From contig NZ_JAMXFA010000001.1 of assembly GCF_025370785.1 (NCBI RefSeq), positions 235,902 to 299,901 of the forward strand: DNA of 64,000 nt. The letters are read 5' to 3'. Positions 5,763 through 50,686 of this stretch are shown here, piece by piece; the stretch's first letter is position 1, and the number at the start of each line of letters is the position of its first letter. The notes under the pieces were generated by a model. The model was given only the letters and a program-made list of their open reading frames with translations. It searched no databases and had not been told where the DNA came from. The position numbers and the translations under genes are program-made. The DNA is from Laspinema olomoucense D3b (GTDB lineage Bacteria; Cyanobacteriota; Cyanobacteriia; Cyanobacteriales; Laspinemataceae).

Positions 5763-5899
5763 AATCAGAGGGACTCTAGCGATTTTCCCCTCCCCTGGGA
5801 CTGGAAAAATCTTCACCCACTGACCCCTTACATCCCAGGGGATAGACTAGGAGCAGATAGGGTGCTACAGGGTCAGACATCGATTAGAATCACCCTCTG

Positions 5900-17832: not shown

Positions 17833-20511
17833 ATGATCAAGAAAAATAGTAGAGTCAGGAGTTGCCAAACCGTGATGTATTGGGGTCATTATTATCTATC
17901 TATTTTTAGCTTGATGAGTGCCTTGCTATTTTTGGACGGAGGGTTAGGACACAAATCCCTCCAGGCGCAGGTTATACCGGATAATACCCTTCCGAATCCT
18001 TCGGGGGTTCAGATCAACGGCAATACCCTCACGATTGAGGGGGGAACTGCTGCCGGTAGTAATTTGTTCCATAGTTTCCAGGAATTTTCTATCCCGACGG
18101 GAACTGCTGCACTTTTTAATAATTCCACCACTATCGCTAATATTATTACTCGCATTACCGGAGGCAAACTGTCCCAAATTGATGGGGCGATCGCCGCTAA
18201 TGGCAGCGCGAATTTATTTTTAATTAATCCCAGTGGCATTGCCTTCGGACCGAATGCCACCCTGAATCTAGGCGGTTCTTTTGTCGGGAGTACCGCCCAC
18301 AGTGTGTTATTTCCTGACGATCGCGCTTTTAGCGCCACCAACCCTGATTCATCCCCACTTTTGAGCGTGAATGTCCCCATCGGGTTACAATATGGGCCCA
18401 ATCCCGAGAGCATCTTTGTGAGGGATTCGGTTCTAACTGTGCTGCCGAATCAAACTTTAACCCTAGTTGGGGGTGAGATTACCCTGGAGGGGGGGCAATT
18501 ACGGGTTCCCGGTGGAACTGTCACTTTGGGGGGAATCTCCGAGGCGGGAGTGGTGGAATTACCAGGGGGAAACGCACTCAAACTGCCGGAAACCGTCGAG
18601 CGATCGCCACTCCATCTCACGAATGGGGCGCGAGTGGATGTGGCCGGTGCAGGGGGTGGAAGTATCGCCATTCAAGTCGAGAATCTGCTGATTTCAGGGC
18701 AGTCTGAGATTCGCGGGGGGATTGCGCCAGGGTCAGGAGAACCCGGTGCACAAGCAGGAAATATCGAAATTGATACCACGGGAAACATTGTTTTAACGGA
18801 AGAGAGTGCGATCGCCAATGAAGTCCAACCCAACGGGGTTGGCGATGGCGGTAATATCACTTTGAATACTACCACCTTTTCCGCCACAAGTGCGATAATT
18901 TCTACTAGCACATCCGGGGAAGGGGATGGCGGTAAACTGCAAATTACCGCCCGCGAGTCGGTGGTATTCGATGGACAGGGGAGAGAAGATTTCATCACCA
19001 TCGCCTCGGCAGATGTAGCACCCGAAGGGGTCGGAAATGCAGGCGGCATTGAGATTCAGGCGGGTTCTGTGTTGGTCAAAGATGGGGCAGGCATGATCAC
19101 GGGAACCCGGGGTCAGGGGAATGGTGCACCCCTGGTAATTCGCGCCTTGGAGTCGGTGGTTTTTGATGGATTGAATTCCAGTAACGATGTGCTAAGGCCC
19201 ACAGGGGCGGAAAGTACCGTAGACCCGGAGGCAATGGGAAATGCGGGAAGTTTAGAGATTGAGACGGCAGTATTACGGATTCTGAATGGGGCGAATGTGG
19301 GTAGTACCACCTTTGAGGCGGGGGATGGTGGTCCTGTGCTTTTGCAGGCAACGGAAGTGATGGAATTTGGGGGAGTCGATCGCGTTGGCAATCCGGTGAT
19401 TGTTTTTAGTGATACTTTGGGAGAAGGGAATGGAGATAATTTACGGATTGAAACTCCGAGGTTGATTTTGCGGGATGGCGCACAGATTAGTGTGGGTACA
19501 TTTGGCGCTGGAGATGGGGGAAATTTGGAGATTTTGGCAACTGAGGCGATTGTTTTATCCGGTGCAGTTCCGGCAATAGAGGGGGGATTTTTCTTCCCGG
19601 ATGAGTCTGGAATCCTATTTCCTACAGGAATTTTTGCTGCTTCTACAGAGACGGGGAATGCGGGGACGATGCGCTTGCAGACGGGACAGTTAATTTTAGG
19701 CGATCGCGCCATCATTTCCGCCAGTAGTGAGAAGACGGGAATCGCCGGGAATATTGAAATTGTGGGGCGGCAGATTGTGGTTAACAATGCTGCGATCGCC
19801 GCAGAAACGGTGCAAGGGGATCAAGCGAATATCTTTATTGAATCGCGGGATATCCAGTTGTGGAACCAAGGGGGAATTACCACAAATGCCAGTGGGAGTG
19901 GGACGGGAGGGAATATTGCGATCGCTACAGATACGTTAGTTGCCGTAGAGAATAGTGATATTACAGCGAATTCCAGCGCCAGTTTTGGGGGTCGCGTGGC
20001 GATCGCCGCCCAAGGCATCTTGGGGACTAATTTTCGCACAGAACTCACGCCACAAAGTGATATTACCGCCACCTCCGAACTCGGGGCGGAGTTTAGCGGC
20101 AGTGTCACAATTAATACCCCTGATGTTAATCCCTCCACGGGATTAGTAGAATTACCCGAAATGCTGGGTCAAGCGAGGGATAATAACTTTGTGGGTTGTG
20201 CCTTATCCGATGAGAATTCTTTTACCATTTCGGGACGAGGAGGATTACCCACGGACCCGACTCAACCCCTCCAAACCCAACCGATTTGGCATGATTTACG
20301 CAACTTTTTCCAAGATTTAGAGGGGGAAACGGTTACCGTTGAACCTCCTCGCCGTCGCACCCCTTCCTCTACAAATCCGTCTTCCCCACTCCAGGAAGCG
20401 ACTGCTTGGCGACGGAATGCGCAAGGAACAATTGAGTTAATGGCGGCGATACCCGAGGGAAGCGTTTCTTTTCCCGGGTTGCGATCGCCTGAGTGTCAAC
20501 CCATTGAATAA
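17833..20511 (+). CDS. two-partner-secretion (TPS) exoprotein: filamentous-haemagglutinin-type N-terminal secretion domain plus beta-helical repeats
   Basis: Signal peptide, then the TPS domain NPSGVQINGNTLTIEGGTAAGSNLFHSFQEFSIPTGTAALFNN ... ANLFLINPSGIAFGPNATL (haemagg_act signature). The rest is Gly/Asn/Thr-rich beta-helix-like. Confidence 0.8.
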   Translation: MIKKNSRVRSCQTVMYWGHYYLSIFSLMSALLFLDGGLGHKSLQAQVIPDNTLPNPSGVQINGNTLTIEGGTAAGSNLFHSFQEFSIPTGTAALFNNSTTIANIITRITGGKLSQIDGAIAANGSANLFLINPSGIAFGPNATLNLGGSFVGSTAHSVLFPDDRAFSATNPDSSPLLSVNVPIGLQYGPNPESIFVRDSVLTVLPNQTLTLVGGEITLEGGQLRVPGGTVTLGGISEAGVVELPGGNALKLPETVERSPLHLTNGARVDVAGAGGGSIAIQVENLLISGQSEIRGGIAPGSGEPGAQAGNIEIDTTGNIVLTEESAIANEVQPNGVGDGGNITLNTTTFSATSAIISTSTSGEGDGGKLQITARESVVFDGQGREDFITIASADVAPEGVGNAGGIEIQAGSVLVKDGAGMITGTRGQGNGAPLVIRALESVVFDGLNSSNDVLRPTGAESTVDPEAMGNAGSLEIETAVLRILNGANVGSTTFEAGDGGPVLLQATEVMEFGGVDRVGNPVIVFSDTLGEGNGDNLRIETPRLILRDGAQISVGTFGAGDGGNLEILATEAIVLSGAVPAIEGGFFFPDESGILFPTGIFAASTETGNAGTMRLQTGQLILGDRAIISASSEKTGIAGNIEIVGRQIVVNNAAIAAETVQGDQANIFIESRDIQLWNQGGITTNASGSGTGGNIAIATDTLVAVENSDITANSSASFGGRVAIAAQGILGTNFRTELTPQSDITATSELGAEFSGSVTINTPDVNPSTGLVELPEMLGQARDNNFVGCALSDENSFTISGRGGLPTDPTQPLQTQPIWHDLRNFFQDLEGETVTVEPPRRRTPSSTNPSSPLQEATAWRRNAQGTIELMAAIPEGSVSFPGLRSPECQPIE

Positions 20512-20667: not shown

Positions 20668-22461
20668 TTGGATTGCTTTATGTCTAAAACTCCTGACTTG
20701 ACCGATCGCCTCATTCGCCAGAAATCTGCCCCTGCATTGTTTAGCAAAGGCCAGTCGGATTATGAAGCGGGCAATGTAACCTCCGTGACTCGGCGAGGCA
20801 ATTTACTCAATGCCGAAGTGATGGATAATGCAGACCAACCCTATCGGGTTCGGGTGGGGTTTGAGCAGGGCTGTTTGACCTCGGTGACCTGTTCTTGTGC
20901 TGATGATAAATCTGAATGGTGTGAACATATTGTCGCTACCTTATTGGTGGTAATGCGGCAACCAGAAACTATTCAAGAGCGTCCGACTTTGGAGCAATTG
21001 CTCGCTCAGCTCAACCGGGCCCAAATCCAAGGTCTAGTGCAAGAGTTAGTTAAACAAAGACCCGAAATTATTGATGAAATTGACTATTACATTACCTTAA
21101 ATAATGAAATAATCAGCCCAATACAATCACCCAATAATCAGCGTCCTTCCCCTATCAATCCGGCTCCTTTTCGGCAGCAGGCGCGGGATATTTTATATGA
21201 AGGGATGCGGTATTTTGAAAGCTTAGACGGTGAAGATGACCCGGTAACCGAGGAGTTGTTAGATTTAATTGATAATATTCAAGGATTAATAGAAATTGGG
21301 GAAAGTTATAATGCTTTAATCGTGTTAGAAGCCATTGCTTCAGCTTGTGCAGCCGATTGGGACCGGGTGGAACAGTATGGGATTGAGTCCGATGAAATTG
21401 TCACAGCAGTGGATGAGGCGATCGCCGAAGCGATTCTCAGCGAATCCCTTAGTTCCCGTGAAGTGGAACAGTGGCGATCGCGCTTAAAAATTCTCCAAGA
21501 GGAGTGGAGTACCGAATTTCCCCTCAGCTTAGAATCCCTCAGCGAAGGATGGGATGATCCGCATTTGGTACAAGCCCTCCAAGGAACTTTATCAGAACCG
21601 AGAATAGCGGAAAATTCTTCCCTCAATGCTTTCCCAGATTTGGTCTTAATTCGCTTAAAAATTCTGGATCGGCAAGAGCGATATCAAGAGTATTTGAACC
21701 TGGCTAAAGCCCAAGGCAAAATAAAACAATATCTTACCATGTTGGGCAGTTTAGGACGAACTACGGAAGCAATGGAAGCCGCCCGGAACCAAATGAAAAC
21801 AATGGAAGAAGCGTTATCCCTGGGTCAAACCTTACGCAGTAATGGGAAAGTCAACCAAGCCCTGGAAGTCGGGGGAATGGGGTTGAAATTACGGGGAGAT
21901 TCCCAATATAAACTTGCCAGTTGGACCGCTGATTTAGCTCAAGAATTAGGAAATACTGAGGTAGAACTGGAGGCGAGAAAATCCGCTTTTTACGATAACC
22001 CCACTTCGAGGGATTATTTTAAAATAAAAGAATTAGCCGGTGAAAATTGGTTCAAATACCAGCCCAATTTATTAAATTCTCTGAGGGAACATAAAATTTG
22101 GAACAAAACTGAGGTTAAAGTAGATATTTTCCTAAGTGAAGGGTTAATTGATGAGGCGATCGCCGCCGTAGAAGGCTTTGGTTCCTATGAGATAGAGTTG
22201 GTGCATCGGGTCATGGATGCGGCGATTAAACACCGTCCAGACTGGGTGATTGAAACGGCGCAACCCCTTGCCGAGTCGATTTTAGATCGCAAAAAATCTG
22301 AATTCTATAATCAGGCGATCGACTGGTTGAAAAAAGTGCGGGCAGCTTATATTCAAAAAGAGCAGTGGACCCGCTGGAAAACTTATCGTCAAGAATTGCT
22401 ACAAATCCACGCCCGCAAACACAAATTCCGGGGGATGCTGGAAGATAGGGGCTTGGACTAA
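20668..22461 (+). CDS. SWIM zinc-finger domain protein (597 aa), otherwise alpha-helical
   Basis: The N-terminus has the CxC-x(n)-CxH SWIM pattern: VTCSCADDKSEWCEHIVATLLV. Confidence 0.65.
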   Translation: MDCFMSKTPDLTDRLIRQKSAPALFSKGQSDYEAGNVTSVTRRGNLLNAEVMDNADQPYRVRVGFEQGCLTSVTCSCADDKSEWCEHIVATLLVVMRQPETIQERPTLEQLLAQLNRAQIQGLVQELVKQRPEIIDEIDYYITLNNEIISPIQSPNNQRPSPINPAPFRQQARDILYEGMRYFESLDGEDDPVTEELLDLIDNIQGLIEIGESYNALIVLEAIASACAADWDRVEQYGIESDEIVTAVDEAIAEAILSESLSSREVEQWRSRLKILQEEWSTEFPLSLESLSEGWDDPHLVQALQGTLSEPRIAENSSLNAFPDLVLIRLKILDRQERYQEYLNLAKAQGKIKQYLTMLGSLGRTTEAMEAARNQMKTMEEALSLGQTLRSNGKVNQALEVGGMGLKLRGDSQYKLASWTADLAQELGNTEVELEARKSAFYDNPTSRDYFKIKELAGENWFKYQPNLLNSLREHKIWNKTEVKVDIFLSEGLIDEAIAAVEGFGSYEIELVHRVMDAAIKHRPDWVIETAQPLAESILDRKKSEFYNQAIDWLKKVRAAYIQKEQWTRWKTYRQELLQIHARKHKFRGMLEDRGLD

Positions 22462-22463
22462 AT

Positions 22464-22494
22464 AAATACCCGCACCCGATCGGGTGGGGTATTT
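22464..22494 (+). terminator. hairpin downstream of the SWIM gene
   Basis: aaataccc-g-cacccga / tcgggtg-gggtattt forms a near-perfect stem, but no strong U-run follows. Confidence 0.3.
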
Positions 22495-22576
22495 ATAGAC
22501 CTATCACAACCGGATTGGGTATTAATGGCTCTAAGTTATGGCATAATTGTAGCACTAACCCACTAGAGGTGAACGT

Positions 22577-23062
22577 ATGTTTCCCTTTCAAAGGTTTACA
22601 ATGACCACTTATCTCAGTCCCCATGAAGTCCAGGAAAAATTAATAGCAGTTGTGGAACCTCCCCCTCAATGGGTCCCGGTGCGGTGGAAAAGGCCGGAAA
22701 AACCCTACCAGGGACAAATCGGTGAACATTCTTTCAAAATTTCTCGAATCATTTCCCATCGCAATTCTTTTTTACCCCAGATTGAGGGGCGAATTCACGC
22801 CCAAGCTAAAGGCAGTAAAATCGAAATTCAAATGAAACTGCACCGGGCTGTTTTGATTTTTATGTGCGTTTGGCTGGGTATAGTTGGACAAGCTGCCTTG
22901 ATGTTTTTAGCGGTCCTGTTTGAAGAATTTCACCCTTTGTTCTTAATGCCTGTGGGAATGTTCATTTTTGGTTTAGTATTACCGTTGATTGGATTTATCC
23001 CGGAAGCTAAGAAGTCTAAACAGTTTTTGATGGAATTGTTTCAAGGGAGTGAAAATTTTTAA
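22577..23062 (+). CDS. small membrane protein, paralog A of a tandem triplet (~90-aa soluble N-domain plus 2 TM helices)
   Basis: MFPFQRFTMTTYLSP...KPYQGQIGEHSFKISRII...LPQIEGRI; about 60% identical to paralog C. Confidence 0.6.
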   Translation: MFPFQRFTMTTYLSPHEVQEKLIAVVEPPPQWVPVRWKRPEKPYQGQIGEHSFKISRIISHRNSFLPQIEGRIHAQAKGSKIEIQMKLHRAVLIFMCVWLGIVGQAALMFLAVLFEEFHPLFLMPVGMFIFGLVLPLIGFIPEAKKSKQFLMELFQGSENF

Positions 23063-23148
23063 TTTAAGAGTGATAGAGGCAAAATTTTATGCCTCTATGA
23101 CTAAAAAAGCTGTAAATAATTTTACAACATAGGGGTGAAAATTAAAAA

Positions 23149-23631
23149 ATGTTGACTTATCAAAAAGTTACTATTCAAAGCCCACTAAAACCCTACCAAG
23201 TTCGGGAAAAATTAATGGGAATTGTGGACACCGACTATCAGATAGGGGAGAAAAGTATCACTCCACTCTATCGCGGAAAAATCCATCAAGACTCTTTTCA
23301 AATTTCCAAAATTATCTACCATCTCAGTTCGGATCGCTATCGTGAGTCTTTTTTCCCGGTACTTGATGGCCAGATTAGGGAACATAATAGCGGGAGTCAA
23401 ATCGATATCCAAATTAAAATTCATCCAGGGGTTATGATTTTTTTGGGAATATGGCTAATAACTGCGGGAAGAGCAACTTGGGTCTCTTTAATGATGCTTA
23501 AAAGCCCATCTTTTGCAGTAGTTTTCAGCCCGATTGCGATTTTCTTAGCGGGTTTAGCAATCCCGATGATTACTTTCGTTGTCATGGCTCACCATTCAAA
23601 AAATTTTTTAGTCAATTTTTTGAAAGAATGA
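23149..23631 (+). CDS. small membrane protein, divergent paralog B of the tandem triplet
   Basis: Same architecture; shared motifs KPYQ, RGKIHQDSFQISKIIYH and DGQI. Confidence 0.55.
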   Translation: MLTYQKVTIQSPLKPYQVREKLMGIVDTDYQIGEKSITPLYRGKIHQDSFQISKIIYHLSSDRYRESFFPVLDGQIREHNSGSQIDIQIKIHPGVMIFLGIWLITAGRATWVSLMMLKSPSFAVVFSPIAIFLAGLAIPMITFVVMAHHSKNFLVNFLKE

Positions 23632-23806
23632 TAAACTATAAGGTGGAGATGATTTCTCCAATTTGACTTAAAAAGATTTTTTATTTTGTCCTTAAAATAC
23701 CGAATATTGGAGTTCATAAATGAGTAAATTTAGTCGGAATTTAATCCCGCTTCAAATCCGATAAATTATGCGACAATTGTAAAAAATAACCCCTAATGGT
23801 GAGCAG

Positions 23807-24304
23807 ATGTTTCCTTTTAAACGGTTTACAATGACGACTTATCTGAGTCCCGAAGAGGTTTTCAAAAAATTAAGTGAAGTGGTGACACCTACCTCCAACC
23901 CAATCCAGTTCCGTTGGCGTAGGTCGAAAAAACCGTACCAGGGACAAATTGCCGAACACTCTTTTAAGATTTCCCGAGTTATCTACAACCGCAATTCTTT
24001 TTTACCTGAAATTGAAGGTCAAATTCAGGCCCACGGTAGAGGCAGTCAAATCAAAATAGAAATAAAACTGCACCCTTTTGTGATTATTTTTATGTCTTTA
24101 TGGCTGATTATGCTTGTAGTAGTAGCCTTGATGATTCTGGGAGAAGCCCTATTCAAGGAAATTTTTAATCTGGCATTTTTAATTCCGATGGGAATGTTAA
24201 TTTTGGGTTTAGCGTTACCCAGAATTGCATTTTTTCCAGAGGCTAAGAAGTCTCAAAAGTTTTTATTAGAGTTGTTCCAAGGCCAAGAAGAGAATTCAAT
24301 TTAA
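23807..24304 (+). CDS. small membrane protein, paralog C of the tandem triplet
   Basis: MFPFKRFTMTTYLSPEEV...KPYQGQIAEHSFKISRVIY... Confidence 0.6.
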   Translation: MFPFKRFTMTTYLSPEEVFKKLSEVVTPTSNPIQFRWRRSKKPYQGQIAEHSFKISRVIYNRNSFLPEIEGQIQAHGRGSQIKIEIKLHPFVIIFMSLWLIMLVVVALMILGEALFKEIFNLAFLIPMGMLILGLALPRIAFFPEAKKSQKFLLELFQGQEENSI

Positions 24305-34744: not shown

Positions 34745-36781
34745 ATGAAAGTGTTTAAGGGATGGATGAAATTAGTTTTGGCTATGACATTGGTGGCGAT
34801 CGCTGCTGATCCTGCCATCACCCAGACAAACCAGTCGGATATCACAGGACCCCTAACTCCAGAGCCGGTATTACCTGTAGAAGAACCCCCTGTAGAAGAA
34901 CCCCCTGTAGAAGAGCCTCCTGTGGAAGAACCGCCAGTGGAAGAGCCTCCTGCAATTATACCAAGCGGAGATATACTCCCTTTAGAAACTCCCACAGAAA
35001 CTCCCACAGAAACTCCCACAGAAACTCCCACAGAAACTCCCACAGAAACTCCCACAGAGACTCCCACAGAGACTCCCACAGAAACTCCCACAGAAACTCC
35101 CACAGAAACTCCCACAGAGACTCCCACAGAAACACCTGGGGATAGCCCAGTAATCCCTGTTAACAGCCCAGGGGAAGTGCCAGCACCGATTCCCATTCAA
35201 ACCCTTGAACCAATTAACACTCAAGCGCCCGAACCCAGCGCCCCGGTTGTCATCCCGGAGAATCCCCAGGTTCCCCGTGAGGAGGAAGTTCCTCCAACGG
35301 TGGGTGAGAATAATCCAGAACCGGACCCCACCACAGAAAGTACCAATCCGATAGAGGGTCAGATTCTCGAAGGGGGTGATAGCACAACGGAAGAGGCACA
35401 ACCCATGACTCCCCTATCGGACCAAGAAGTCGATCGCCCGGGTTATGAAACTCAGTTAGCCGTTGCTGATGTTGGGGTGGCGGTTCAAATGTTGGAAGAA
35501 TTTCAGGCAATGGAGTTTAGCAATTATCTAGCGGTGGAGTTATTGGGGGAAACGGCGACTCCCGATGAAATTGCCCAAAAATTGTATGATTTGTGGCAAG
35601 AAACTGACAATAAGAGTGCATTTATTTATGTCTCAGCCTTAGCAGAGCAATTAGAACTGGTGATGATTTTCCCCCAGAATTTTAGAGTAGCCGGGGGCAG
35701 TTCAGACTTAGTGGTTTCAGCGGATTTAGCCCAAGGACTGATTGAGAGAACGAGTGAGGTAGCTGTTCGCCAAACCGTGCCAAATATCTCTCGGGAAGAG
35801 CTGATTGCACAGGTGCAAAACTTGCGAGCAGAACTGACTAATCCCAGAAGAATAAACAGCCAGAGTTACTTACCGATCGCCCAACAACTCTATCAGTCCT
35901 TGATTGCTCCAATGGAAGCACAATTGAAAGCTAATGGGATTGAAACCTTAGTTTTTTCGATGGATTCTGGGTTGAGAACCCTTCCCCTGGCGGCATTACA
36001 TGATGGCGAACAGTTTTTAATAGAAAAATATGCCGTTGCTTTAGTCCCCAGTTTTGGCTTAACTGATGTCACCTATTCTGATATCCGCAACCGAGAAGTG
36101 TTAGCGATGGGTTCTGCTATTTTTGAAAACCTCAATCCTCTGCCTGCGGTACCTAGTGAGTTGCAAAATATTGTGAGCGAACCCTGGAAGGGAATTGTTT
36201 TCTTGAATGAACAATTCACTGCCGCTAATTTCCGACAAATTAACCAGGAAAAACAATTTGGAATTATCCATTTGGCAACTCATGCGGAATTTCAAGGGGG
36301 AAATTTGGATAACTCTTATATCACGTTTTACGATGGCCGAGTCGGACTCAACCGAATTCGAGAGTTAGCCACGGAACTCGGGTGGAATACCTCGCAAAAT
36401 CCTCCCATTGAACTCTTAACCCTAAGTGCTTGTCGGACGGCAGTAGGAGATACCGAGGCGGAGTTAGGATTTGCGGGGTTAGCGGTGCTTTCTGGGGCTA
36501 AGGCATCCTTAGCCAGTTTCTGGTATGTTAGCGATGCAGGCACTCTGGGATTAATGAGTGAATTTTATTCCCAATTAGGGGAAAAACCACTGAAAGCCGA
36601 AGCTTTACGGCAAACCCAACTGGCGCTGTTAAGGGGAGAGGTGCGCCTAGAAAATGGGATGTTAGTTCTCTCTAATGGCAAAACCGTCCCCCTCCCACCG
36701 GAATTGGTAGAACAAAAAACGCCGAACCTATCTCACCCTTATTTTTGGTCGGCGTTTACTCTAATTGGGAACTGGAATTAA
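34745..36781 (+). CDS. CHAT-domain (caspase-like) protein with signal peptide and low-complexity PVEEP / ETPT tandem repeats
   Basis: The C-terminal half has the CHAT His/Cys dyad context (HLATHAEFQGG ... LLTLSACRTAVGD). The N-terminus is a signal peptide followed by (PVEEP)x5 and (ETPT)x~13. Confidence 0.75.
   Translation: MKVFKGWMKLVLAMTLVAIAADPAITQTNQSDITGPLTPEPVLPVEEPPVEEPPVEEPPVEEPPVEEPPAIIPSGDILPLETPTETPTETPTETPTETPTETPTETPTETPTETPTETPTETPTETPTETPGDSPVIPVNSPGEVPAPIPIQTLEPINTQAPEPSAPVVIPENPQVPREEEVPPTVGENNPEPDPTTESTNPIEGQILEGGDSTTEEAQPMTPLSDQEVDRPGYETQLAVADVGVAVQMLEEFQAMEFSNYLAVELLGETATPDEIAQKLYDLWQETDNKSAFIYVSALAEQLELVMIFPQNFRVAGGSSDLVVSADLAQGLIERTSEVAVRQTVPNISREELIAQVQNLRAELTNPRRINSQSYLPIAQQLYQSLIAPMEAQLKANGIETLVFSMDSGLRTLPLAALHDGEQFLIEKYAVALVPSFGLTDVTYSDIRNREVLAMGSAIFENLNPLPAVPSELQNIVSEPWKGIVFLNEQFTAANFRQINQEKQFGIIHLATHAEFQGGNLDNSYITFYDGRVGLNRIRELATELGWNTSQNPPIELLTLSACRTAVGDTEAELGFAGLAVLSGAKASLASFWYVSDAGTLGLMSEFYSQLGEKPLKAEALRQTQLALLRGEVRLENGMLVLSNGKTVPLPPELVEQKTPNLSHPYFWSAFTLIGNWN
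34872..34950 (+). repeat. 15-nt tandem repeat x5 (cctgtagaagaaccc; encodes PVEEP) inside the CHAT gene
   Basis: Seen directly in the sequence. Confidence 0.8.
34985..35136 (+). repeat. 12-nt tandem repeat x~13 (gaaactcccaca / gagactcccaca; encodes ETPT) inside the CHAT gene
   Basis: Seen directly in the sequence. The antisense strand yields a spurious GVSV-repeat ORF. Confidence 0.85.
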
Positions 36782-42071: not shown

Positions 42072-45000
42072 ATGAAAATCAGTCCATCTGTCCTCCTGCG
42101 TCTGTTTAGCAAACTGCCTCAGCTTTGCTATCCCAGAAACCAGCATTCAAGGCCATTGCTACAATTCCTGCACCCACTGGGCATTGCCCTCATCAGTGTC
42201 ACCCTCGCCACGGCGGTTAAAAGCGCCCTAGCACCCTTAATCTTACGGGAAAGCCCATTTTTGGTGTATTTTGCAGCGATTATGGCTAGTGCCTGGTTTG
42301 GGGGTACGAAAGCGGGACTGATGGCCACCCTGGGGGCTGGATTAGCCAGCAGTTACTTATTTTTATCTCCGCTTTATCCCCAAATAGAAAGCAGTCCGGG
42401 CCAAACATTCCGGTTAATTTTATTTCTGCTGGAAGGTTCGGCAATTGCGATCGCCATCGGTTCATTGCAACAAAAGAAAGAACAGTGCGCCCAAAGTGCC
42501 AGAATCGCTCAAAGACATCTTGAATCTTTTCGGCGAAGCGAACAGCAATTTCAGTTGTTGGTAGAGGGCATCGAAGATTATGGACTTTATATGCTTGGGC
42601 CCGATGGACGAGTAAATAGCTGGAATCTGGGAGCAAAACACCTCAAAGGCTATGCAGCCGAGGAAATTATTGGACAACATTTTTCCTGCTTTTATCCTCC
42701 AGAAGCAGTGGCCCAAGGTCAACCGGAACGAGACTTAAAACAGGCAGTAGAACAGGGACGGTTGGAACAAGAAGGAGAACGACGGCGAAAGGACGGAACC
42801 CGCTTTTGGGTCCATGAAGTAATTACGCCTTTATACGATAACCAAGGTAATCTTTACGGCTTCTCTAAAATTAGCCGGGATATCACCCAAAGCAAGCAGG
42901 CAGAGGCGGCACTCAGAGCCAGTGAACAACGGTTTAAAACCCTCGCTGAATCAACAGTGGAAGGGATTTTATTTTATCAGGGCGATCGCATGATTGCCGT
43001 AAATCCTTCCTTGGAAAAGATATTTGGATATGACCCGGACGAACTGACCGGACGGCCCTTAGCCTATATTTTTACAGAGGAAACAGTAGAGTTAATGTTG
43101 GATGACTGCCGATGGATACAGGAGATATCATCCGAAGCGGTGGGGATTAAAAAAGATGGGACAACGGTGTTTCTAGAAGCGGTTATTCAACCGACGCTTT
43201 ATTTGGGTCGCTCAGGATGGATGGCATCAGTGCGGGATATCAGCGCTCGCAAACGGGCCGAAGCGGAACTCCAACAAACCCTGAAAGAATTATCTGATTT
43301 CCAATTTGCTTTAGATAAATCAGCGATTGTTGTGACAACTGATGCTAAAGGCACGATTCAATATGCTAATGAGAAATTTAGTGAGATTTCTCAATATTCC
43401 CAGAGTGAATTGATTGGACAAAACCATCGCTTGGTCAATTCCGGCTATCATCCTAAAGAATTTTTTAGGAATCTCTGGGCGACCATTTCTCGGGGGGAAG
43501 TGTGGCGAGGAGAAATTAAGAATCGGGCCAAAGATGGAACTTATTATTGGGTGGATACGGTAATTGTACCCTTTTTAGATAGTCATGAAAGGCCGTTCCA
43601 ATATTTAGCCATCCGCTACGATATTACCCAACGAAAACAGGCCGAGGAAGCCTTGCGCGACAGTGAAAAACGGTTCCGGGATATGGCAGATACGGCCCCG
43701 GTGCTGCTGTGGGTAGCCGATTGCCAAGGGCAATGGACCTTTTTAAATAAGTGGGGATTAAACTTCATTGGCGCATTACTGGAAGCGGACCCGGACCTCA
43801 ACCATCGGGACCGGATCCATCCCGAGGAGCAGGTCCAGTGCGTCTTAAGTTACCAACAAGCGGTGAAGACCAGCCAACCCTTTACCCAAGAATACCGCCT
43901 GCAACGAGCGGATGGAGCCTACCGCTGGATGCTAGAAACAGGGGTTCCCCAGTTAAGTCCCGAGGGCAATTTACTCGGGTTCATTGGGTCGGCGATCGAT
44001 ATTACCCCCCTCAAAGAGGCGGAAGCGGAACGGATTCAACTCTTGCAACTCGAACAAGCCGCCCGAACTCAAGCTGAAGCCAGCGAGCAGTATTATCGAT
44101 TCCTGAGCGAAGCGATTCCGCAAATGGTCTGGACCGCCCTACCGGATGGGACTTTAGATTACCTGAGTCACCGCTGGAGTGAGTACACAGGCTTAAGCGA
44201 GAGCGAACTTTTAGGCTGGGGATGGGAACCCATTGTGCATCCTGACGACATGGCCGAATGTCGCGAAAAGTGGACCCTTTGCCTGGAAAACGGACAACCG
44301 TATGAAATTGAAGCGCGGATGCGCCGGGGTTGCGATGGCGCTTACCGCTGGCATCTGGGATTAGCGGTGCCCATGCGGGATCCTCAGGGGGAGATTGTGA
44401 AGTGGTTTGGGACAAATACGGACATTCACGAACGCAAGCAGGCACAGCAAGAGCGCATGGAGTTGTTGGAACGGGAGAAAGCGGCCCGAATTTTGTCAGA
44501 ACGGGCAACGGCGATGGTGCATCGGTTACAAGCGATTGTGGATGTGGCGATCGCCCCTTTATCTCTCCATGATCTGCTCCAAGAGTTGCTCGATCGCCTC
44601 ACGATGGTGTTAGAAGTCGATGCTGCCGTCATTTTATTGACTAACGAGGACCGGACAGCCCTGATGGTGACCGCCACAAAGGGCTTAGATTTAGACGAAC
44701 CCCTGTCGCCGAGTATGCCGATCCCGATAGGTCTAGGGTTCGCGGGAAAAATTGCCCAGACTCGGCAACCGATGCGGATTGAGCGCGATGCTCATACTCA
44801 AGTGATTAGTCCCCTGTTCCGACACAAAAAAATAGAGTCAATTATGGGCGCACCGATGCTCTTACAAGACCGGGTACTCGGGGTGATCCATATCAGTACC
44901 GAGTCGCCGCGAGAATTCATGGCAGAAGATGTCTATTTGCTGCAACTGGTGGCCGATCGCGTGGCCCTTGCCATTGACCGGGCCAACCTCTATGAGGCCG

Positions 45001-46178
45001 AGCAACAAGCCCGCGATCGCGCCGAAAAAGCCAACCGACTCAAGGATGAATTTTTGGCGATCGTCTCTCATGAATTGCGAACTCCCCTCAACTCCATTCT
45101 CGGCTGGGCGCAATTGCTCCGTTCTCGCACTTTGAAGGAAGAGACACAACAAAAAGCCCTGGAAACCATCGAACGGAATGCTAAGCATCAGGTGAACCTG
45201 ATTGATGATATCCTCGATGTCTCCCGGATTGTTCGCGGGAAAATTCGCCTCAACCGAGTTCCTTTGTATTTGGAAACTCTGGTGGAACAAGCGATCGCCA
45301 CCCTGACTCCGGCAGCGGAAGCCAAATCCATTCAAATCCACACCCAGTTCAACTCAAACGGACAGCCCATTTTAGGGGATAGTAGCCGCCTCCATCAAGT
45401 GGTCTGGAATCTGCTCTCCAATGCCGTAAAATTCACCCCCAATGGCGGACGGGTGACGGTGGCGATCGAGCAGGTGGGCGATTACATCGAGTTTCGGGTG
45501 CAGGATACGGGGATGGGAATTAGTTCGGACTTCCTGCCTCACGTCTTTGAGGGCTTTCGCCAAGCCAACAGTTCCTCCACCCGTACCCACGGGGGTCTCG
45601 GTCTGGGCTTAACCATTGTGCGCTATTTGGTCGAACTGCATGGGGGAACCGTCCATGCTTTCAGCCAGGGAGAAGACACAGGTTCAACCTTTACCGTGGC
45701 CCTCCCTATCGGGGTCTCCCAGAACCTTCTTTTGGATCCCGATTCCCTGACTTGGGACAAAAAAACAATGGGGAACGGTTCCTTTAACCTCGCTGGTTTA
45801 CAGGTGCTGGTGGTGGATGACGATCGCGATACGGGAGAGCTGATTGCTCAAGTCTTAGGGGAATATGGAGTAAAGACGACGGTGGTTTTATCCGCTGCCG
45901 AAGCCCTAGCCGCCACCGAGCGATCGCGTCATGACATCTTGATTTCTGATATCGGAATGCCAGATGAAGATGGCTATGGTTTGATCCGCAAAATTCGCCA
46001 GCGCGAGGCGGGATACTCTAAGCCCATTCCGGCGATCGCCTTGACCGCTTTCGCTCGGGAAGAAGATCGTCAACAGGCCCTTTTAGCCGGATTTCATCTT
46101 CATGTTGCTAAACCTGTGGAACCCTTGAAATTAGCAACTGCCCTCGCCGAAATCGCCCAACAAACCGGCTTAATCTAA
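42072..46178 (+). CDS. hybrid sensor histidine kinase: N-terminal membrane domain (KdpD/DUF4118-like), ~5 PAS/PAC, GAF, HisKA, HATPase_c, receiver
   Basis: Repeated PAS-type segments (GQHFSCFYPPE..., RKDGTRFWV..., KDGTYYWVDTVIVP...) and a GAF-like region. H-box AIVSHELRTPLNSILGW, G-box GGLGLGLTIVRYLVELHGG, and a C-terminal receiver LQVLVVDDDRDTGE...DILISDIGMPDEDG...KP. Confidence 0.85.
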   Translation: MKISPSVLLRLFSKLPQLCYPRNQHSRPLLQFLHPLGIALISVTLATAVKSALAPLILRESPFLVYFAAIMASAWFGGTKAGLMATLGAGLASSYLFLSPLYPQIESSPGQTFRLILFLLEGSAIAIAIGSLQQKKEQCAQSARIAQRHLESFRRSEQQFQLLVEGIEDYGLYMLGPDGRVNSWNLGAKHLKGYAAEEIIGQHFSCFYPPEAVAQGQPERDLKQAVEQGRLEQEGERRRKDGTRFWVHEVITPLYDNQGNLYGFSKISRDITQSKQAEAALRASEQRFKTLAESTVEGILFYQGDRMIAVNPSLEKIFGYDPDELTGRPLAYIFTEETVELMLDDCRWIQEISSEAVGIKKDGTTVFLEAVIQPTLYLGRSGWMASVRDISARKRAEAELQQTLKELSDFQFALDKSAIVVTTDAKGTIQYANEKFSEISQYSQSELIGQNHRLVNSGYHPKEFFRNLWATISRGEVWRGEIKNRAKDGTYYWVDTVIVPFLDSHERPFQYLAIRYDITQRKQAEEALRDSEKRFRDMADTAPVLLWVADCQGQWTFLNKWGLNFIGALLEADPDLNHRDRIHPEEQVQCVLSYQQAVKTSQPFTQEYRLQRADGAYRWMLETGVPQLSPEGNLLGFIGSAIDITPLKEAEAERIQLLQLEQAARTQAEASEQYYRFLSEAIPQMVWTALPDGTLDYLSHRWSEYTGLSESELLGWGWEPIVHPDDMAECREKWTLCLENGQPYEIEARMRRGCDGAYRWHLGLAVPMRDPQGEIVKWFGTNTDIHERKQAQQERMELLEREKAARILSERATAMVHRLQAIVDVAIAPLSLHDLLQELLDRLTMVLEVDAAVILLTNEDRTALMVTATKGLDLDEPLSPSMPIPIGLGFAGKIAQTRQPMRIERDAHTQVISPLFRHKKIESIMGAPMLLQDRVLGVIHISTESPREFMAEDVYLLQLVADRVALAIDRANLYEAEQQARDRAEKANRLKDEFLAIVSHELRTPLNSILGWAQLLRSRTLKEETQQKALETIERNAKHQVNLIDDILDVSRIVRGKIRLNRVPLYLETLVEQAIATLTPAAEAKSIQIHTQFNSNGQPILGDSSRLHQVVWNLLSNAVKFTPNGGRVTVAIEQVGDYIEFRVQDTGMGISSDFLPHVFEGFRQANSSSTRTHGGLGLGLTIVRYLVELHGGTVHAFSQGEDTGSTFTVALPIGVSQNLLLDPDSLTWDKKTMGNGSFNLAGLQVLVVDDDRDTGELIAQVLGEYGVKTTVVLSAAEALAATERSRHDILISDIGMPDEDGYGLIRKIRQREAGYSKPIPAIALTAFAREEDRQQALLAGFHLHVAKPVEPLKLATALAEIAQQTGLI

Positions 46179-46436: not shown

Positions 46437-49400
46437 ATGAAACAATCTAATTTTAATCTGGCAACTTTCCATCCAGAGGCTGAGGGACAAGGATTAACAA
46501 AATCCCCCCAAACCCACAGTAGCCAGCCCCAAAAAATCTTATTAGGGAGGGGTATAATATTAAGCTTCCTGGCCCTCTTAACTCTCCTCCTATGGCCCGA
46601 CCTGCTGAGGAATCTCTTCGCCAAGGAGGGTTTTATCCCCCACGGCCATTGTTATCTGTGGAAGCCCTCCTTAGTCTGGCTTCATATTACCTCAGATAGC
46701 CTGATTGGGATATCCTATGTTGCCATATCTACCAGCCTTGCTTATTTCGTTTATAAAGCGCGGCGCAATATCCCCTTTCATTGGATGTTTTTGGCCTTCG
46801 GTGCCTTTATCATCGCTTGTAGCATGACCCATTTTCTAGCGGTATGGACCTTGTGGAATCCCACCTACTGGTTATCAGGAAATGTCAAATTGCTCACTGC
46901 CCTCGCCTCAGTTACCACAGCAATTTCTTTACCCCCGTTAATCCCCAGAGCGTTAAAATTATTGGACTCGGCTCAGATGTCTGAAGAACGCCGCTTGAAT
47001 CTGGAACGGGCAAACCAAGAACTGCAAGCGCTCTATCGTCAACTTAAGCAACTGGATGAACTCAAAAGCCAATTTTTCGCCAATGTCAGTCACGAATTGC
47101 GGACCCCCCTGGCGTTGATTTTAGGTCCGACTCAGAAGTTGATCGGCGATCGCCAACTTTTGGACGAACAACGCCGGGACTTGCTCGTAATCGAACGCAA
47201 TGCCCGAATGCTGCTCAAACAGGTTAATGATCTCCTGGATATCTCTAAGCTAGAAGCTGGCAAAATGGAACTCGCAGCAGTTCCTCTGGACTTAGCCAGT
47301 TTGATCCGCCAAGTAGCGGCGAACTTTGATGCATTAGCCTTTGAACGGGAGATTAACTTAACCGTCCAGACTCCGGAGTCCTTGGGGACCCAATTGGACC
47401 GCCAAAAAATCGAGCGGGTGGTTTTAAACTTACTCTCCAATGCGTTTAAGTTCACACCCCTGGGTGGCAAAATTGACTGTTCTCTCTCTCTAGCCGAGGG
47501 GGAGAATAAGCCGGTGACGATCGCCATCCAAGATAGTGGTCCAGGGGTCCCCCAGGAACGGCGGGAAACCATCTTTGAGCGGTTTAGCCAAATTGAAGGA
47601 GGGAGCACCCGTCGCTTTGGCGGGACTGGGTTGGGGTTGGCGATTGTCAAGGAATTTGTAGAACTTCATCAGGGAACTATTACGGTTGCGGATGCACCTC
47701 TAGGGGGGGCGATGTTTACCGTCCAGCTTCCGATGGAGGTTTTTCCAGATATCCCCAAGACGGCTTCAGAATCTTCCCTGTGGGATGATCTGGCAGAAGC
47801 GGCGATCGCGGAACTGAAGCTAGAAGTGGAGACATCTCCCCGGATTCTGGTCCCGAATGACCCTCGACCCCTGGTTTTAATTGTCGAAGACAACCCGGAA
47901 ATGAATCGCTTTGTCTGCGATATCTTGGGACGGGACTATCAAATTGCTACAGCGTTCAATGGGGAGCAAGGATTGGAACAGGCACTCACCCTCAATCCAG
48001 ATTTAATCATCAGTGATGTGATGATGCCAGAAATAGGGGGTGATCGCCTGGTGTCTTTATTACGCAGCAATCCCGATTTCGCCAATGTTTCAATTATCAT
48101 GTTGACGGCGAAAGATGATGATGATTTGCGGGTACAGTTATTGCGCGAAGGGGTGCAAGATTATCTGATGAAACCCTTTTCTGTGGAAGAACTGCGGGCG
48201 CGGGTGGGGAATGCGATCTCCATTAAACGGGTGCGGGATTTGTTACAGCAGGAGTTAACCTCTCAAAGCTCTGATGTAGAAGTCCTCGCCTCGGAACTGG
48301 CTTTCCATAAGCGCGAACTGGAAGCAGCGCTCATCCTCCAGCAGCAACAGTCGGAAGAATTAGTTAAAGCCAATCAAATCAAGGATGAGTTTTTATCGAT
48401 TGTTTCCCATGAACTTCGCACGCCCCTCAATTCGATTCTGGGCTGGACCCAGTTGCTTCGCACTCGCCAGCTCAATGAAACCACGAAGATAAAAGCATTA
48501 GAAACCATCGAGCGCAATGCCAAACAACAGGTTAATCTGATCGAGGATATCCTGGATGTTTCCCGGATCATTCGCGGTAAAATTCGCTTACAACTGCGTC
48601 CCGTTAATTTAATTCCTCTTGTGGAAGCTGCCCTGGATACGATGCTTCCCACGGCTGAAGCTAAGGGAATTCATATTGATTTCAACTTTGACCCGGCGAT
48701 CGCCTTGGTTTCGGGAGATAGCGATCGCTTGCAGCAAGTGGCTTGGAATTTATTGTCTAATGCGGTCAAGTTTACTCCTAGCGGAGGCTCAGTTTCCGTG
48801 GCGATCGCCCAGACGGATTCCTTTATTACCCTCCAGGTACAGGATACGGGAATTGGCATCAATCCAGACTTTCTCCCCCATATTTTTGACGGATTCCGCC
48901 AAGCGGATAGTTCTACAACTCGCGCCTATGGTGGATTAGGCTTGGGATTGACCATCGTCCGTCATCTAGTGGAACTCCACGGGGGCCAGGTCGAGGCTTT
49001 GAGTGAGGGCGAAGGCCAAGGAGCCACCTTGATTGTCCAGTTACCCATTCTGCCAAAACCGCCACAAGACGAGGGCGATGAGACTTCCTGTTCCCGGGAA
49101 GACAGTGTGTCGAGTGAACTGTGGGCCCTGGATGGGTTACAGGTGTTGGTGGTGGATGACGACCCGGATACAGGAGACTTAATGGAAGCGATGCTGACAG
49201 ATTATGGGGTGCGGGTTCGGGTTGTGACTTCGGTTTCCCAGGCGATCGCCCTGATGGACCAATTCAAATTTGATGTTTTAGTCAGCGATATTGGAATGCC
49301 TGGAGAAGACGGATATCACTTAATTCACCAAATCCGGCAGCATGAAGGTGACAGCAACAGTCATATTCCGGCGATCGCCCTGACGGCATTTGCCTCGGAG

Positions 49401-49508
49401 GAGGACCGTGCCCAATCCCTCCTAGCAGGCTTTCAAAAACACCTCTCTAAACCTGTAGAACCGGCCCAATTAGCTAAAGTCCTCGCTCAATTAGCCTCGA
49501 CCCTGTGA
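46437..49508 (+). CDS. hybrid histidine kinase with ethylene-binding-domain-like N-terminus and two tandem HisKA-HATPase-receiver modules
   Basis: TM region ITSDSLIGISYVAISTSLAYFV ... WMFLAFGAFIIACSMTHFLAVWTL ... VKLLTALASV aligns helix-by-helix with the Arabidopsis ETR1 ethylene-binding domain, including the Cu-ligand Cys and His (ACSMTH vs LCGATH). Then H-box1 NVSHELRTPLALILG, receiver1 LVLIVEDNPEM...ISDVMMPEIGG, H-box2 IVSHELRTPLNSILGW, and receiver2 LQVLVVDDDPDTG. Confidence 0.85.
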   Translation: MKQSNFNLATFHPEAEGQGLTKSPQTHSSQPQKILLGRGIILSFLALLTLLLWPDLLRNLFAKEGFIPHGHCYLWKPSLVWLHITSDSLIGISYVAISTSLAYFVYKARRNIPFHWMFLAFGAFIIACSMTHFLAVWTLWNPTYWLSGNVKLLTALASVTTAISLPPLIPRALKLLDSAQMSEERRLNLERANQELQALYRQLKQLDELKSQFFANVSHELRTPLALILGPTQKLIGDRQLLDEQRRDLLVIERNARMLLKQVNDLLDISKLEAGKMELAAVPLDLASLIRQVAANFDALAFEREINLTVQTPESLGTQLDRQKIERVVLNLLSNAFKFTPLGGKIDCSLSLAEGENKPVTIAIQDSGPGVPQERRETIFERFSQIEGGSTRRFGGTGLGLAIVKEFVELHQGTITVADAPLGGAMFTVQLPMEVFPDIPKTASESSLWDDLAEAAIAELKLEVETSPRILVPNDPRPLVLIVEDNPEMNRFVCDILGRDYQIATAFNGEQGLEQALTLNPDLIISDVMMPEIGGDRLVSLLRSNPDFANVSIIMLTAKDDDDLRVQLLREGVQDYLMKPFSVEELRARVGNAISIKRVRDLLQQELTSQSSDVEVLASELAFHKRELEAALILQQQQSEELVKANQIKDEFLSIVSHELRTPLNSILGWTQLLRTRQLNETTKIKALETIERNAKQQVNLIEDILDVSRIIRGKIRLQLRPVNLIPLVEAALDTMLPTAEAKGIHIDFNFDPAIALVSGDSDRLQQVAWNLLSNAVKFTPSGGSVSVAIAQTDSFITLQVQDTGIGINPDFLPHIFDGFRQADSSTTRAYGGLGLGLTIVRHLVELHGGQVEALSEGEGQGATLIVQLPILPKPPQDEGDETSCSREDSVSSELWALDGLQVLVVDDDPDTGDLMEAMLTDYGVRVRVVTSVSQAIALMDQFKFDVLVSDIGMPGEDGYHLIHQIRQHEGDSNSHIPAIALTAFASEEDRAQSLLAGFQKHLSKPVEPAQLAKVLAQLASTL

Positions 49509-49634: not shown

Positions 49635-50045
49635 TTGACTGCCAATCCGATACCAGGACGCAAGGCAATGGCAAAAATTTTGATTGTTGATGACTCTACC
49701 CTTTCCCGGGGAATCTTGCGACGCATCCTCCAGACTGAAGGCCACTTGATTATTGAGGCCAAAGATGGATTGATGGGCATTGAGAGTTACTATATAGAGA
49801 AACCCGATCTTGTTTTACTGGATATAGCCATGCCAGATATGCAGGGAACCGAAGTGCTCGAAAAATTACGCGCCTTCGACGATCGCGCCCGCATCGTCAT
49901 GGCGACTGCTGACCTGCAAGAACTGACCCGGACTTCTGTGATGGCAGCCGGAGCAATGGGTTATCTGACTAAACCCTATAATCCCGAGGCGGTTCTGGAT
50001 ACTGTAAATCAGGTCCTCAAAGGAATCCCGGGAGGGGTAGGATGA
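49635..50045 (+). CDS. single-domain CheY-like response regulator
   Basis: KILIVDDSTLSRGIL...LVLLDIAMPDMQG...GAMGYLTKP. An alternative start lies at 49665 (MAKILIVDD). Confidence 0.8.
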   Translation: MTANPIPGRKAMAKILIVDDSTLSRGILRRILQTEGHLIIEAKDGLMGIESYYIEKPDLVLLDIAMPDMQGTEVLEKLRAFDDRARIVMATADLQELTRTSVMAAGAMGYLTKPYNPEAVLDTVNQVLKGIPGGVG

Positions 50046-50686
50046 AGCTGACAGAAGCCCAACAGGATGCCTTAAGCGAACTGCTGAATATGGGTTTCGC
50101 GCGTACGGCTGCGGCTCTCTCGGAACTGACAGGTCATCGGGTTTTACTAGAGGTTCCCCAGGTTTCCCTTCACCCCATTGAAGAACTCAGCGCTAAACTG
50201 GGTACGTTTATTAAAGGGGAAATTGCCACGGTCCAGCAAATTTTTACTGGACGGGTTTCGGGAAATGCCCTGTTATTGTTGAATTATGACGGCGCGGTGC
50301 AACTGACGGAGTTAGTGACTCCTGAACAGGCTCTCCATCGCGATCGCCTCGATGCCTCGGCGGCAGAAGTGCTGACGGAAATTGGCAATATTTTACTCAA
50401 CGCCTGTCTGAGCGTTTTCGGGAATTTGTTACAAATGCAAATCTCCTTTTCCGTTCCTCGTTTACATTTAGAAGCCTTAGATGGGTTACTGCATTCTCTG
50501 AGCATTGGTAAGGCGGAAATGCGTTATGCAATGGTGGTTTATACCGGGTTTCGGATGAAGGAAAATTCAATTCAGGGGTATTTAGTGATGGTATTGAGTG
50601 TGGTTTCTTTAGAAAAATTACTTGAAGAAATTGATACCTGGGCCAAGGCGGAAATAGAACCCCATAACGTTTCTTTTTCTTCATAA
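50042..50686 (+). CDS. CheC/CheX/FliY-family CheY-P phosphatase (two active-site repeats)
   Basis: Two exact occurrences of the CheC phosphatase motif spacing. Site 1 is D-ALS-E-LL-N followed by exactly 22 residues then P. Site 2 is E-IG-N followed by exactly 22 residues then P. The start overlaps the stop of the response regulator (ATGA). Confidence 0.7.
   Translation: MKLTEAQQDALSELLNMGFARTAAALSELTGHRVLLEVPQVSLHPIEELSAKLGTFIKGEIATVQQIFTGRVSGNALLLLNYDGAVQLTELVTPEQALHRDRLDASAAEVLTEIGNILLNACLSVFGNLLQMQISFSVPRLHLEALDGLLHSLSIGKAEMRYAMVVYTGFRMKENSIQGYLVMVLSVVSLEKLLEEIDTWAKAEIEPHNVSFSS

Follow-up and report, generated by a model that had tools for sequence, protein, structure and literature searches.

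The window, by which we mean the whole stretch of 64,000 nucleotides analyzed here from Laspinema olomoucense D3b (contig NZ_JAMXFA010000001.1), contains at 46437..49508 a gene for a protein of 1023 amino acids (aa) that, judging from its sequence, is a genuine sensor kinase belonging to the ethylene-binding-domain (EBD) family, and one which keeps the copper site of that family yet has six of the seven residues classically required of an ethylene receptor. The EBD is followed by a first histidine kinase (HK1), a first receiver (REC1), a second histidine kinase (HK2), and a second receiver (REC2), of which series the conserved family core is EBD-HK1-REC1-HK2, the REC2 being optional. The family so defined is large, bacterial, and uncharacterized, and differs from all proven ethylene receptors at the residue corresponding to position 36 of the plant receptor ETR1. 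We propose that a sensor of the Cu(I)/ethylene type drives, within this single polypeptide, a kinase cascade in two tiers, which proposal, taken whole, we consider about evenly balanced between right and wrong. The gene and its parts, including the transmembrane (TM) segments, are the following:

46437..49508, + strand: whole gene for the sensor kinase TM0-EBD-HK1-REC1-HK2-REC2; uninterrupted open reading frame (ORF) with an ATG start, 1023 aa
46536..46604, + strand: TM0, an extra N-terminal hydrophobic segment, aa 34-56; hydropathy peak 2.39
46638..46661, + strand: PHGHCYLW motif, aa 68-75, predicted to be periplasmic, directly before EBD helix 1
46671..46961, + strand: EBD (ETR1_N), aa 79-175, with three TM helices; from Pfam, alignments, and an AlphaFold2 (AF2) model
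46947..47072, + strand: linker 1, aa 171-212, coiled-coil helix joining TM3 with the DHp of HK1; from spacing and periodicity
47022..47741, + strand: kinase 1 (HisKA + HATPase_c), aa 196-435, phospho-His H219; from Pfam and conservation
47868..48221, + strand: receiver 1, aa 478-595, phospho-Asp D527; from Pfam and conservation
48183..48410, + strand: linker 2, aa 583-658, single helix from REC1 alpha5 to His658 of HK2; from spacing, periodicity, and AF2
48354..49052, + strand: kinase 2 (HisKA + HATPase_c), aa 640-872, phospho-His H658; from Pfam and conservation
49143..49484, + strand: receiver 2, aa 903-1016, phospho-Asp D951, an accessory module; from Pfam, in 40/120 relatives

The protein is 100% identical to the NCBI entry "ATP-binding protein [Laspinema olomoucense]." A Pfam scan found in it one ETR1_N domain and two each of HisKA, HATPase_c, and Response_reg, which result confirms the two complete HisKA-HATPase-REC modules that a first, sequence-only reading of this DNA had placed after the EBD, with every catalytic residue intact. 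The ETR1_N match (PF25487) spans aa 79-175 and profile positions 2-97 of 97 and scores 121.3 bits (E = 2e-35), the gathering cutoff being 27. No PAS or GAF domain was found by that scan anywhere in the protein, and NCBIfam gave for the same protein sub-threshold matches only, to generic hybrid kinases (LvrA, TorS, BarA, and HrmK). Conservation was assessed in the nearest relatives, namely the 120 best database clusters at 90% identity, obtained with the query's own segments as probes. A TM0-like segment stands ahead of the EBD in 102 of those 120; and in the PHGHCYLW motif every residue except the L is invariant across the family alignment A1. A motif of the PHGHCY type is also present in GeiEtr1 and GeiEtr2 of Geitlerinema and in the EBD of the gammaproteobacterial Exilibacterium, but not in the plant receptors, which have Cys4/Cys6 instead; its role could be that of a dimer disulfide or of periplasmic metal capture.

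To compare the EBD residue by residue, we used as references GeiEtr1 and GeiEtr2 (supplement of PMC6682694), AtETR1, and database sequences named as plant ethylene receptors. The AtETR1 sequence, to which the named plant receptors are 82-91% identical, is consistent with the published residue names D25, I28, I35, P36, I62, C65, H69, K91, T94, S98, and P110. The query EBD is 32-46% identical to the plant EBDs (E values of 1e-12 to 1e-21), and in the alignment D25 of ETR1 corresponds to D87 of the query, Y32 to Y94, I35 to I97, I62 to I125, C65 to C128, H69 to H132, K91 to K151, S98 to S158, and P110 to P170, all nine of which are kept in the query and in 120/120 relatives. Among them are the residues of the Cu(I) site, that is, C128 and H132 in helix 2 and D87 in helix 1, along with the partner K151. 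In ETR1, a part in Cu binding is ascribed to D25, C65, and H69, D25 being a determinant for Cu as well as for ethylene, and a part in signal transmission to the D25-K91 pair (PMC10266040). Hydropathy peaks at aa 79-107, 111-141, and 151-171 mark three TM helices, and three helices are likewise present in the AF2 model of the EBD at a pLDDT of 75, the AF2 models cited here being monomers of moderate confidence built on shallow alignments (11-12 sequences). When that EBD model was run with Foldseek against the PDB, no match was obtained at E <2, nor was any EBD sequence found in the PDB. The match of the three N-terminal TM helices to the ETR1 EBD, as put forward in the sequence-only reading, is thus upheld by both the Pfam score and the residue alignment, with the correction that TM0, a fourth hydrophobic segment, comes ahead of the three; the Cys/His pair of Cu(I) ligands in IIACSMTH, moreover, survives alignment to the plant receptors and to GeiEtr1/2, and the helix-1 Asp and Tyr described there as preserved are D87 and Y94.

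Regarding the transmitter half of the protein, both kinase cores contain the H-box His and the N, G1, and G2 boxes, as is proper to a hybrid histidine kinase, and both receivers the acidic pair, the phospho-Asp, the T, and the K. In kinase 1, H219, N335, D366xGxG, and the G2 box are conserved in 118-120 of the 120 relatives; in receiver 1, E484, D485, D527, T557, and K579 in all 120 (with T or S at 557); and in kinase 2 the catalytic residues in 119-120 of the 120. Across the 40 relatives having a REC2, the phospho-Asp and the Lys of that receiver are kept in 40/40 and the other positions in 36-39. The lengths of the connecting segments fall into two kinds. From I169 in TM3 to His219 there are 50 residues in 120/120 proteins, and from Lys579 of REC1 to His658 there are 72 (n=9), 79 (n=85), or 86 (n=2), which lengths are exact heptad steps and account for 96/120 proteins, the remaining 24 having PAS/GAF inserts between REC1 and HK2; the tethers from kinase to receiver, for their part, are variable (126-205 and 110-188 residues). 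The family hydrophobicity of both linkers has its peak at a period of 3.5 residues, the observed power being reached by 9/2000 shuffles for linker 1 and by 1/2000 for linker 2. In the AF2 model, REC1 alpha5, linker 2, and DHp alpha1 form one 93-residue helix (model residues 108-200) that includes His658, with a mean pLDDT of 83.8 and values of 76-84 in the linker. A heptad-quantized coiled coil leading from a receiver to the phospho-His helix is a hallmark of a receiver that serves as the input domain of a kinase, and linker 2, as a coiled coil of conserved phase from REC alpha5 to DHp alpha1, has the form expected in a receiver-controlled kinase. The succession of receiver, coiled-coil signaling helix, and histidine kinase is an established arrangement (PMC1592074; Anantharaman, Balaji and Aravind, 2006).

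In the mechanism that we propose, the protein would be a dimeric, four-pass membrane sensor, whose EBD most likely holds Cu(I) on Cys128 and His132 with Asp87 and would have ethylene, or some small molecule closely related to it, as its ligand. The signal would travel from TM3 to kinase 1 along a rigid coiled coil whose length is fixed; that kinase would autophosphorylate on His219, and the phosphate would then pass, by way of a flexible tether, to Asp527 in receiver 1. Because the last helix of receiver 1 continues unbroken into the phospho-His helix of kinase 2, that receiver would be no end-point; rather, its phosphorylation state would turn kinase 2 on or off, and kinase 2 would phosphorylate His658 using its own ATP-binding domain and deliver the phosphate to Asp951 of receiver 2, to the adjacent stand-alone CheY-like receiver described below, or to both. 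By analogy with ETR1 and with SynEtr1 (slr1212) of Synechocystis sp. PCC 6803, the ligand would probably lower the activity of kinase 1; ethylene has been reported as a negative regulator of slr1212 (PMC7700396).

Several points weigh against this proposal. The residue aligned with ETR1 Pro36 is Ser98 in the query and is a Ser in 120/120 family members. The seven residues required in AtETR1 are said to be those of the Wang list that the Binder lab uses, D25, Y32, I35, P36, I62, C65, and H69, in which list Y32 reportedly belongs; of these, six are kept, and P36 is replaced. The Ser36 and Pro36 clades, in addition, differ systematically at ETR1 positions 33, 34, 57, 67, 70, 92, 97, 104, and 106, and with the changes at 33, 34, 57, 70, 97, and 106 coordinated with that at 36 the affinity or the ligand may differ; in the literature searched, we found no ethylene-binding assay on any Ser36-type EBD. 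We infer, furthermore, the copper and ligand binding, the direction of the regulation, and the partners in every phosphotransfer step; the AF2 models have the moderate confidence already stated; and the neighboring receiver and CheX genes are not conserved family-wide, many of the dual-kinase genes being orphans. The likeness to an ethylene receptor drawn in the sequence-only reading accordingly stands with respect to genuine membership in the EBD family, but overlooked the invariant change of Pro36 to Ser and hence that six of the seven required residues are present, and with Pro36 so replaced the inference of ethylene binding is weakened.

The replacement of Pro36 and the substitutions that go with it lend themselves to the alternative that survives best, in which the cascade is as we propose, but the Ser36-type EBD senses a signal other than ethylene, such as the availability of Cu(I) or the redox state, another small unsaturated or gaseous ligand, or ethylene itself at a very different affinity. 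Ser36 is invariant where PMC6586836, citing Wang 2006, counts Pro36, along with I35, I62, C65, and H69, as indispensable if ETR1 is to bind ethylene; the coordinated clade-specific substitutions lie in all three EBD helices; and the affinity of an EBD can be tuned in nature, as the Asp25Asn variants that occur there show (PMC10266040). A second, Pro36-type EBD gene is found within the genus, at the locus L077 of Laspinema palackyanum D2a (NZ_JAMXFF010000037.1, match 5001-5348), the product of which has at least 1807 aa and consists of an EBD, about 1180 aa unassigned, a histidine kinase, and two receivers in succession. The genus Laspinema therefore carries both EBD types, Ser36 and Pro36, and the presence of this separate gene beside the Ser36 type suggests that the two are not redundant. 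The other six required residues, along with K91, S98, and P110, are nevertheless strictly conserved, and in the wider clade any of S, P, A, T, G, or L is tolerated at position 36, which may thus be noncritical in bacteria. The essentiality of P36, besides, comes from plant ETR1 and not from a bacterial EBD with a Pro-to-Ser change, and the mutagenesis in question was reportedly an alanine scan (P36A). On balance, that the ligand of the Ser36-type EBD is ethylene or a close analogue seems to us slightly the better wager, and we view a different ligand, or a markedly different affinity, as possible though doubtful, which judgment extends to this alternative as a whole.

With respect to the second tier, the sequence-only reading had contemplated an intramolecular multi-step phosphorelay. 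Such a relay would run from H219 to D527 to H658 to D951, with the DHp of HK2 acting as an HPt-like intermediate. The order of the phospho-sites along the chain (H, D, H, D) does fit such a four-step relay, as does the absence of a separate HPt domain, none of which was found in the 1023-aa protein by Pfam and NCBIfam, nor any credible HPt motif in the window by a scan for HxxKG, a crude procedure, Pfam itself having been run on the large ORFs. Two HxxKG matches in the window lay outside every ORF treated as a gene and were unconvincing. Between the two Asp sites, however, neither an HPt nor an ATP-independent His carrier was found, the second His being instead part of a complete kinase, whose N, G1, and G2 boxes, conserved in 119/120, would be needless in a passive phosphotransfer intermediate; the rigid, heptad-quantized fusion of REC1 to HK2 suits allosteric control and not the docking of an Asp pocket onto His658; and two-thirds of the family are without a REC2. 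The linker geometry, the intact HK2, and the failure to find an HPt thus favor the two-tier cascade over a His-Asp-His-Asp relay, and we consider the latter unlikely.

The two modules might, alternatively, serve independent outputs, HK1-REC1 constituting a self-contained sink or feedback loop and HK2-REC2 being separately regulated and merely fused to it. Modules 1 and 2 are in fact only about 32% identical, and differ in their DHp specificity helices and in the alpha1 regions of their receivers; but the input of HK2 is REC1 alone in the 96/120 proteins having a direct coiled-coil link, and the strictly conserved phase of that linker argues for coupling, so that we hold this arrangement to be quite improbable and retain the two-tier cascade.

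The architecture, described as unusual in the sequence-only reading, proved instead to be common. The layout EBD-HK1-REC1-HK2 is present in 120/120 nearest clusters, and is therefore a family hallmark and not the quirk of a single gene. Of those clusters 80 are without a REC2, at about 870 aa, and among the 40 having one, some bear PAS/GAF domains inserted before HK2, at 1300-1785 aa. A library-wide search with the EBD alone returned 8,031 representatives (50% identity level, E <=1e-3). Among the 150 closest of the representatives at 50% identity, position 36 was Ser in 123 cases and otherwise Pro (16), Ala (5), Thr (4), Gly (2), or Leu (1), the Ser36 EBDs there being followed by many different downstream layouts. 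A scan of reference genomes, one genome per species, gave at least 587 EBD stretches, and the layouts were judged in the best 80 loci, in which group 14 proteins were dual-kinase, with Ser36 in 14/14, and 47 had Pro36 EBDs (Nostoc, Calothrix, Anabaena, and others), with the dual-kinase layout in 0/47. The layout EBD-HK-REC-HK was also seen in genomes of the Chloroflexota, Acidobacteriota, and Verrucomicrobiota, the dual-kinase members outside the cyanobacteria belonging to the Ktedonobacteraceae (L017), the Blastocatellia (L020), and the Verrucomicrobiaceae (L060). These three Ser36 proteins come from non-cyanobacterial metagenome-assembled genomes (MAGs), which origin implies either horizontal spread or mis-binning. 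In another MAG (L005; MFD01721.bin.1.50), a gene at 4806..7646 with 92% EBD identity stops after HK2, at 946 aa, with the syntenic stand-alone receiver still downstream of the shortened ORF; a frameshift in the MAG assembly or a genuine loss of REC2 may be the cause. We found no publication on ethylene sensing in Laspinema or Oscillatoria acuminata and, in the literature searched, no description of the Ser36 dual-kinase family, although earlier surveys might already depict the architecture.

The neighboring two-component genes are these:

42072..46178, + strand: upstream DUF4118-PAS(x5)-GAF-HK-REC hybrid kinase, by Pfam; transmitter paralogous to module 2
49635..50045, + strand: stand-alone CheY-like receiver, by Pfam; same position in O. 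acuminata
50042..50686, + strand: CheC/CheX-like putative receiver phosphatase; Pfam CheC 31.6 bits, CheX 26.5 bits
50724..53069, + strand: downstream PAS-HK-REC hybrid kinase, by Pfam

The five-gene cluster, from the upstream kinase to the PAS-HK-REC kinase, is identical in Oscillatoria acuminata PCC 6304, including the CheC/CheX-like gene, whose start overlaps the stop of the stand-alone receiver gene. The upstream DUF4118-PAS-GAF kinase is conserved as a neighbor in L001, L004, L005, and L006, and alone is retained next to a more distant member (61% identity); a Lyngbya member of 870 aa has no two-component genes nearby, and a small receiver gene adjoins the dual-kinase gene in 6/17 loci. 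A scan for promoters and terminators over 41.6-53.9 kb gave counts not above those of shuffles. That the ORF itself joins two adjacent genes through a sequencing or assembly error, as the similar HK-REC module in the upstream gene might lead one to suspect, is practically dismissed by the conservation data, since the complete genome of O. acuminata PCC 6304 has the same ORF without interruption, as do over 100 independent clusters and assemblies.

Module 2 and the upstream HK-REC are 59.6% identical over 386 aa, their kinase cores 68%, and the DHp alpha1 of the upstream kinase is nearly identical to that of HK2; the downstream PAS-HK-REC kinase, by comparison, is of an unrelated lineage, being only 31% identical to HK2 and lying outside the HK2 clade. 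In a neighbor-joining tree, the upstream kinases of three genomes were grouped with the HK2 clades of Laspinema and P0013, to the exclusion of the other HK2s, in 178/200 bootstraps, whereas all HK2s were monophyletic without the upstream kinases in just 18/200. The upstream kinases thus nest within the HK2 clade, and the upstream transmitter is a local duplicate of module 2. We rejected the idea that module 2 and the upstream gene had lately undergone gene conversion within Laspinema, since the Laspinema HK2s and the upstream kinases made up a clade of their own in only 12/200 bootstraps; the duplication is older, and the P0013 lineage shares it. The near identity of the DHp alpha1 suggests that both sensors address the same partner, for which reason, together with the paralogy to module 2, the upstream PAS/GAF hybrid kinase would probably feed the same output. 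A candidate phospho-acceptor of HK2 is the stand-alone receiver at 49635..50045, which protein the neighboring CheC/CheX-like phosphatase would reset.

Among the known systems, SynEtr1 (also UirS or PixA) is, like the query, a cyanobacterial membrane histidine kinase with an N-terminal EBD, whose signaling depends on the His-kinase activity and on phosphotransfer to a response regulator. In SynEtr1, however, a cyanobacteriochrome (PAS/GAF) stands between the EBD and the only kinase, as the sequence-only reading had stated in agreement with the literature, and the seven binding residues are reportedly all retained, whereas the query has two serial kinases, Ser at position 36, and no PAS or GAF, its EBD being joined to the kinase by a coiled coil with a fixed 50-residue helix to His219; it is therefore not a light/ethylene receptor of the SynEtr1 type. 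With Arabidopsis ETR1 and ERS1 the query shares a homologous three-helix Cu(I)/ethylene EBD, the equivalents of D25, C65, H69, and K91, and a downstream histidine-kinase transmitter. The plant receptors, of layout EBD-GAF-HK(-REC), have one kinase and signal mainly through CTR1; the query lacks the GAF, and has two kinase modules, an extra N-terminal TM segment, Ser in place of Pro36, and the one conserved Cys of PHGHCY in place of the plant Cys4/Cys6. GeiEtr1 and GeiEtr2 of Geitlerinema sp. PCC 7105 and AzoEtr1 of Azospirillum brasilense are also bacterial EBD-histidine kinases, ethylene binding having been shown for the AzoEtr1 protein and for the Geitlerinema organism, and the motif MPHGxCYLW before helix 1 is common to the query and GeiEtr1/2. 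In the latter two the EBD is followed by a GAF or PAS/PAC/GAF and one kinase, and in AzoEtr1 by a PAS and one kinase; all three have Pro36-type EBDs, and none the HK-REC-HK core.

The same order HK-REC-HK-REC as in the query occurs in the eukaryotic dual histidine kinases (Dictyostelium DhkD, those of basidiomycetes, and Klebsormidium KniteHK1/2). These are without an EBD, and what they share with the query is the domain order. Dual histidine kinases are described in fungi, Amoebozoa, and Klebsormidium, with function and phosphorelay logic obscure (PMC6324907). In S-helix architectures, a receiver upstream of a parallel coiled coil feeds the DHp/kinase, as a proposed conformational switch, and the heptad periodicity and quantized length of the query linker match that description; but a direct reading found in linker 2 no "ERT," the signature that defines the S-helix in its central heptad, and this segment would then be S-helix-like in its working.

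Elsewhere in the window, we observed at 30677..33325 (- strand) a protein of 882 aa that is homologous to Major Vault Protein of eukaryotes (in Pfam, 223 bits for the Vault repeats and 186 bits for MVP_shoulder, with Vault_2/3/4 as well), near which, with one unannotated ORF between, lies a CHAT-domain protein at 34745..36781 (216 bits). At 11170..12920 (+ strand) an AAA_21 gene (AbiEii-like ATPase) overlaps a DUF4276 gene, a pair typical of candidate defense or toxin-antitoxin modules; at 17833..20511 (+ strand) a TPS (two-partner secretion) domain is present in a protein of 892 aa, followed at 20668..24304 (+ strand) by four ORFs, none with a Pfam match; and at 9486..10889 (- strand) a further histidine kinase of 467 aa (HisKA + HATPase_c), with no adjoining receiver among the large ORFs scanned.

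As to what the finding means, nothing is overturned by it, since cyanobacterial EBD proteins with diverse outputs were already known and the gene is not unique. The proven bacterial ethylene receptors are nonetheless few, namely SynEtr1 and AzoEtr1, besides which cells of Geitlerinema bind ethylene, and the prediction of receptors rests on seven residues of plant ETR1, of which the present family, while keeping the copper site, always replaces one. Should the Ser36 family bind ethylene, the sequence definition of a receptor would be widened; if not, a new ligand specificity would be gained for the fold. We tentatively suggest, as a speculation more apt to fail than to hold, that there is a large, overlooked clade of Ser36 EBDs, mainly in filamentous cyanobacteria but also in the Acidobacteriota, Chloroflexota, and Verrucomicrobiota, the dual-kinase members of which are two-tier kinase cascades, each in one chain, by which a gas signal dependent on Cu(I) is amplified or given a threshold, which signal could be ethylene with altered kinetics or a different small ligand. 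If that were true, the seven-residue filter for functional receptors would not score the clade as functional, and a concrete mechanism for amplification at the level of the receptor would be at hand. In the HK-REC-coiled-coil-HK core one has a clean case of a two-component pair that serves as the input of another. The dual-kinase layout is widespread in bacteria too, not only in eukaryotes, and on the same condition the family would offer, from bacteria, a model of the dual histidine kinases of eukaryotes, which await explanation.

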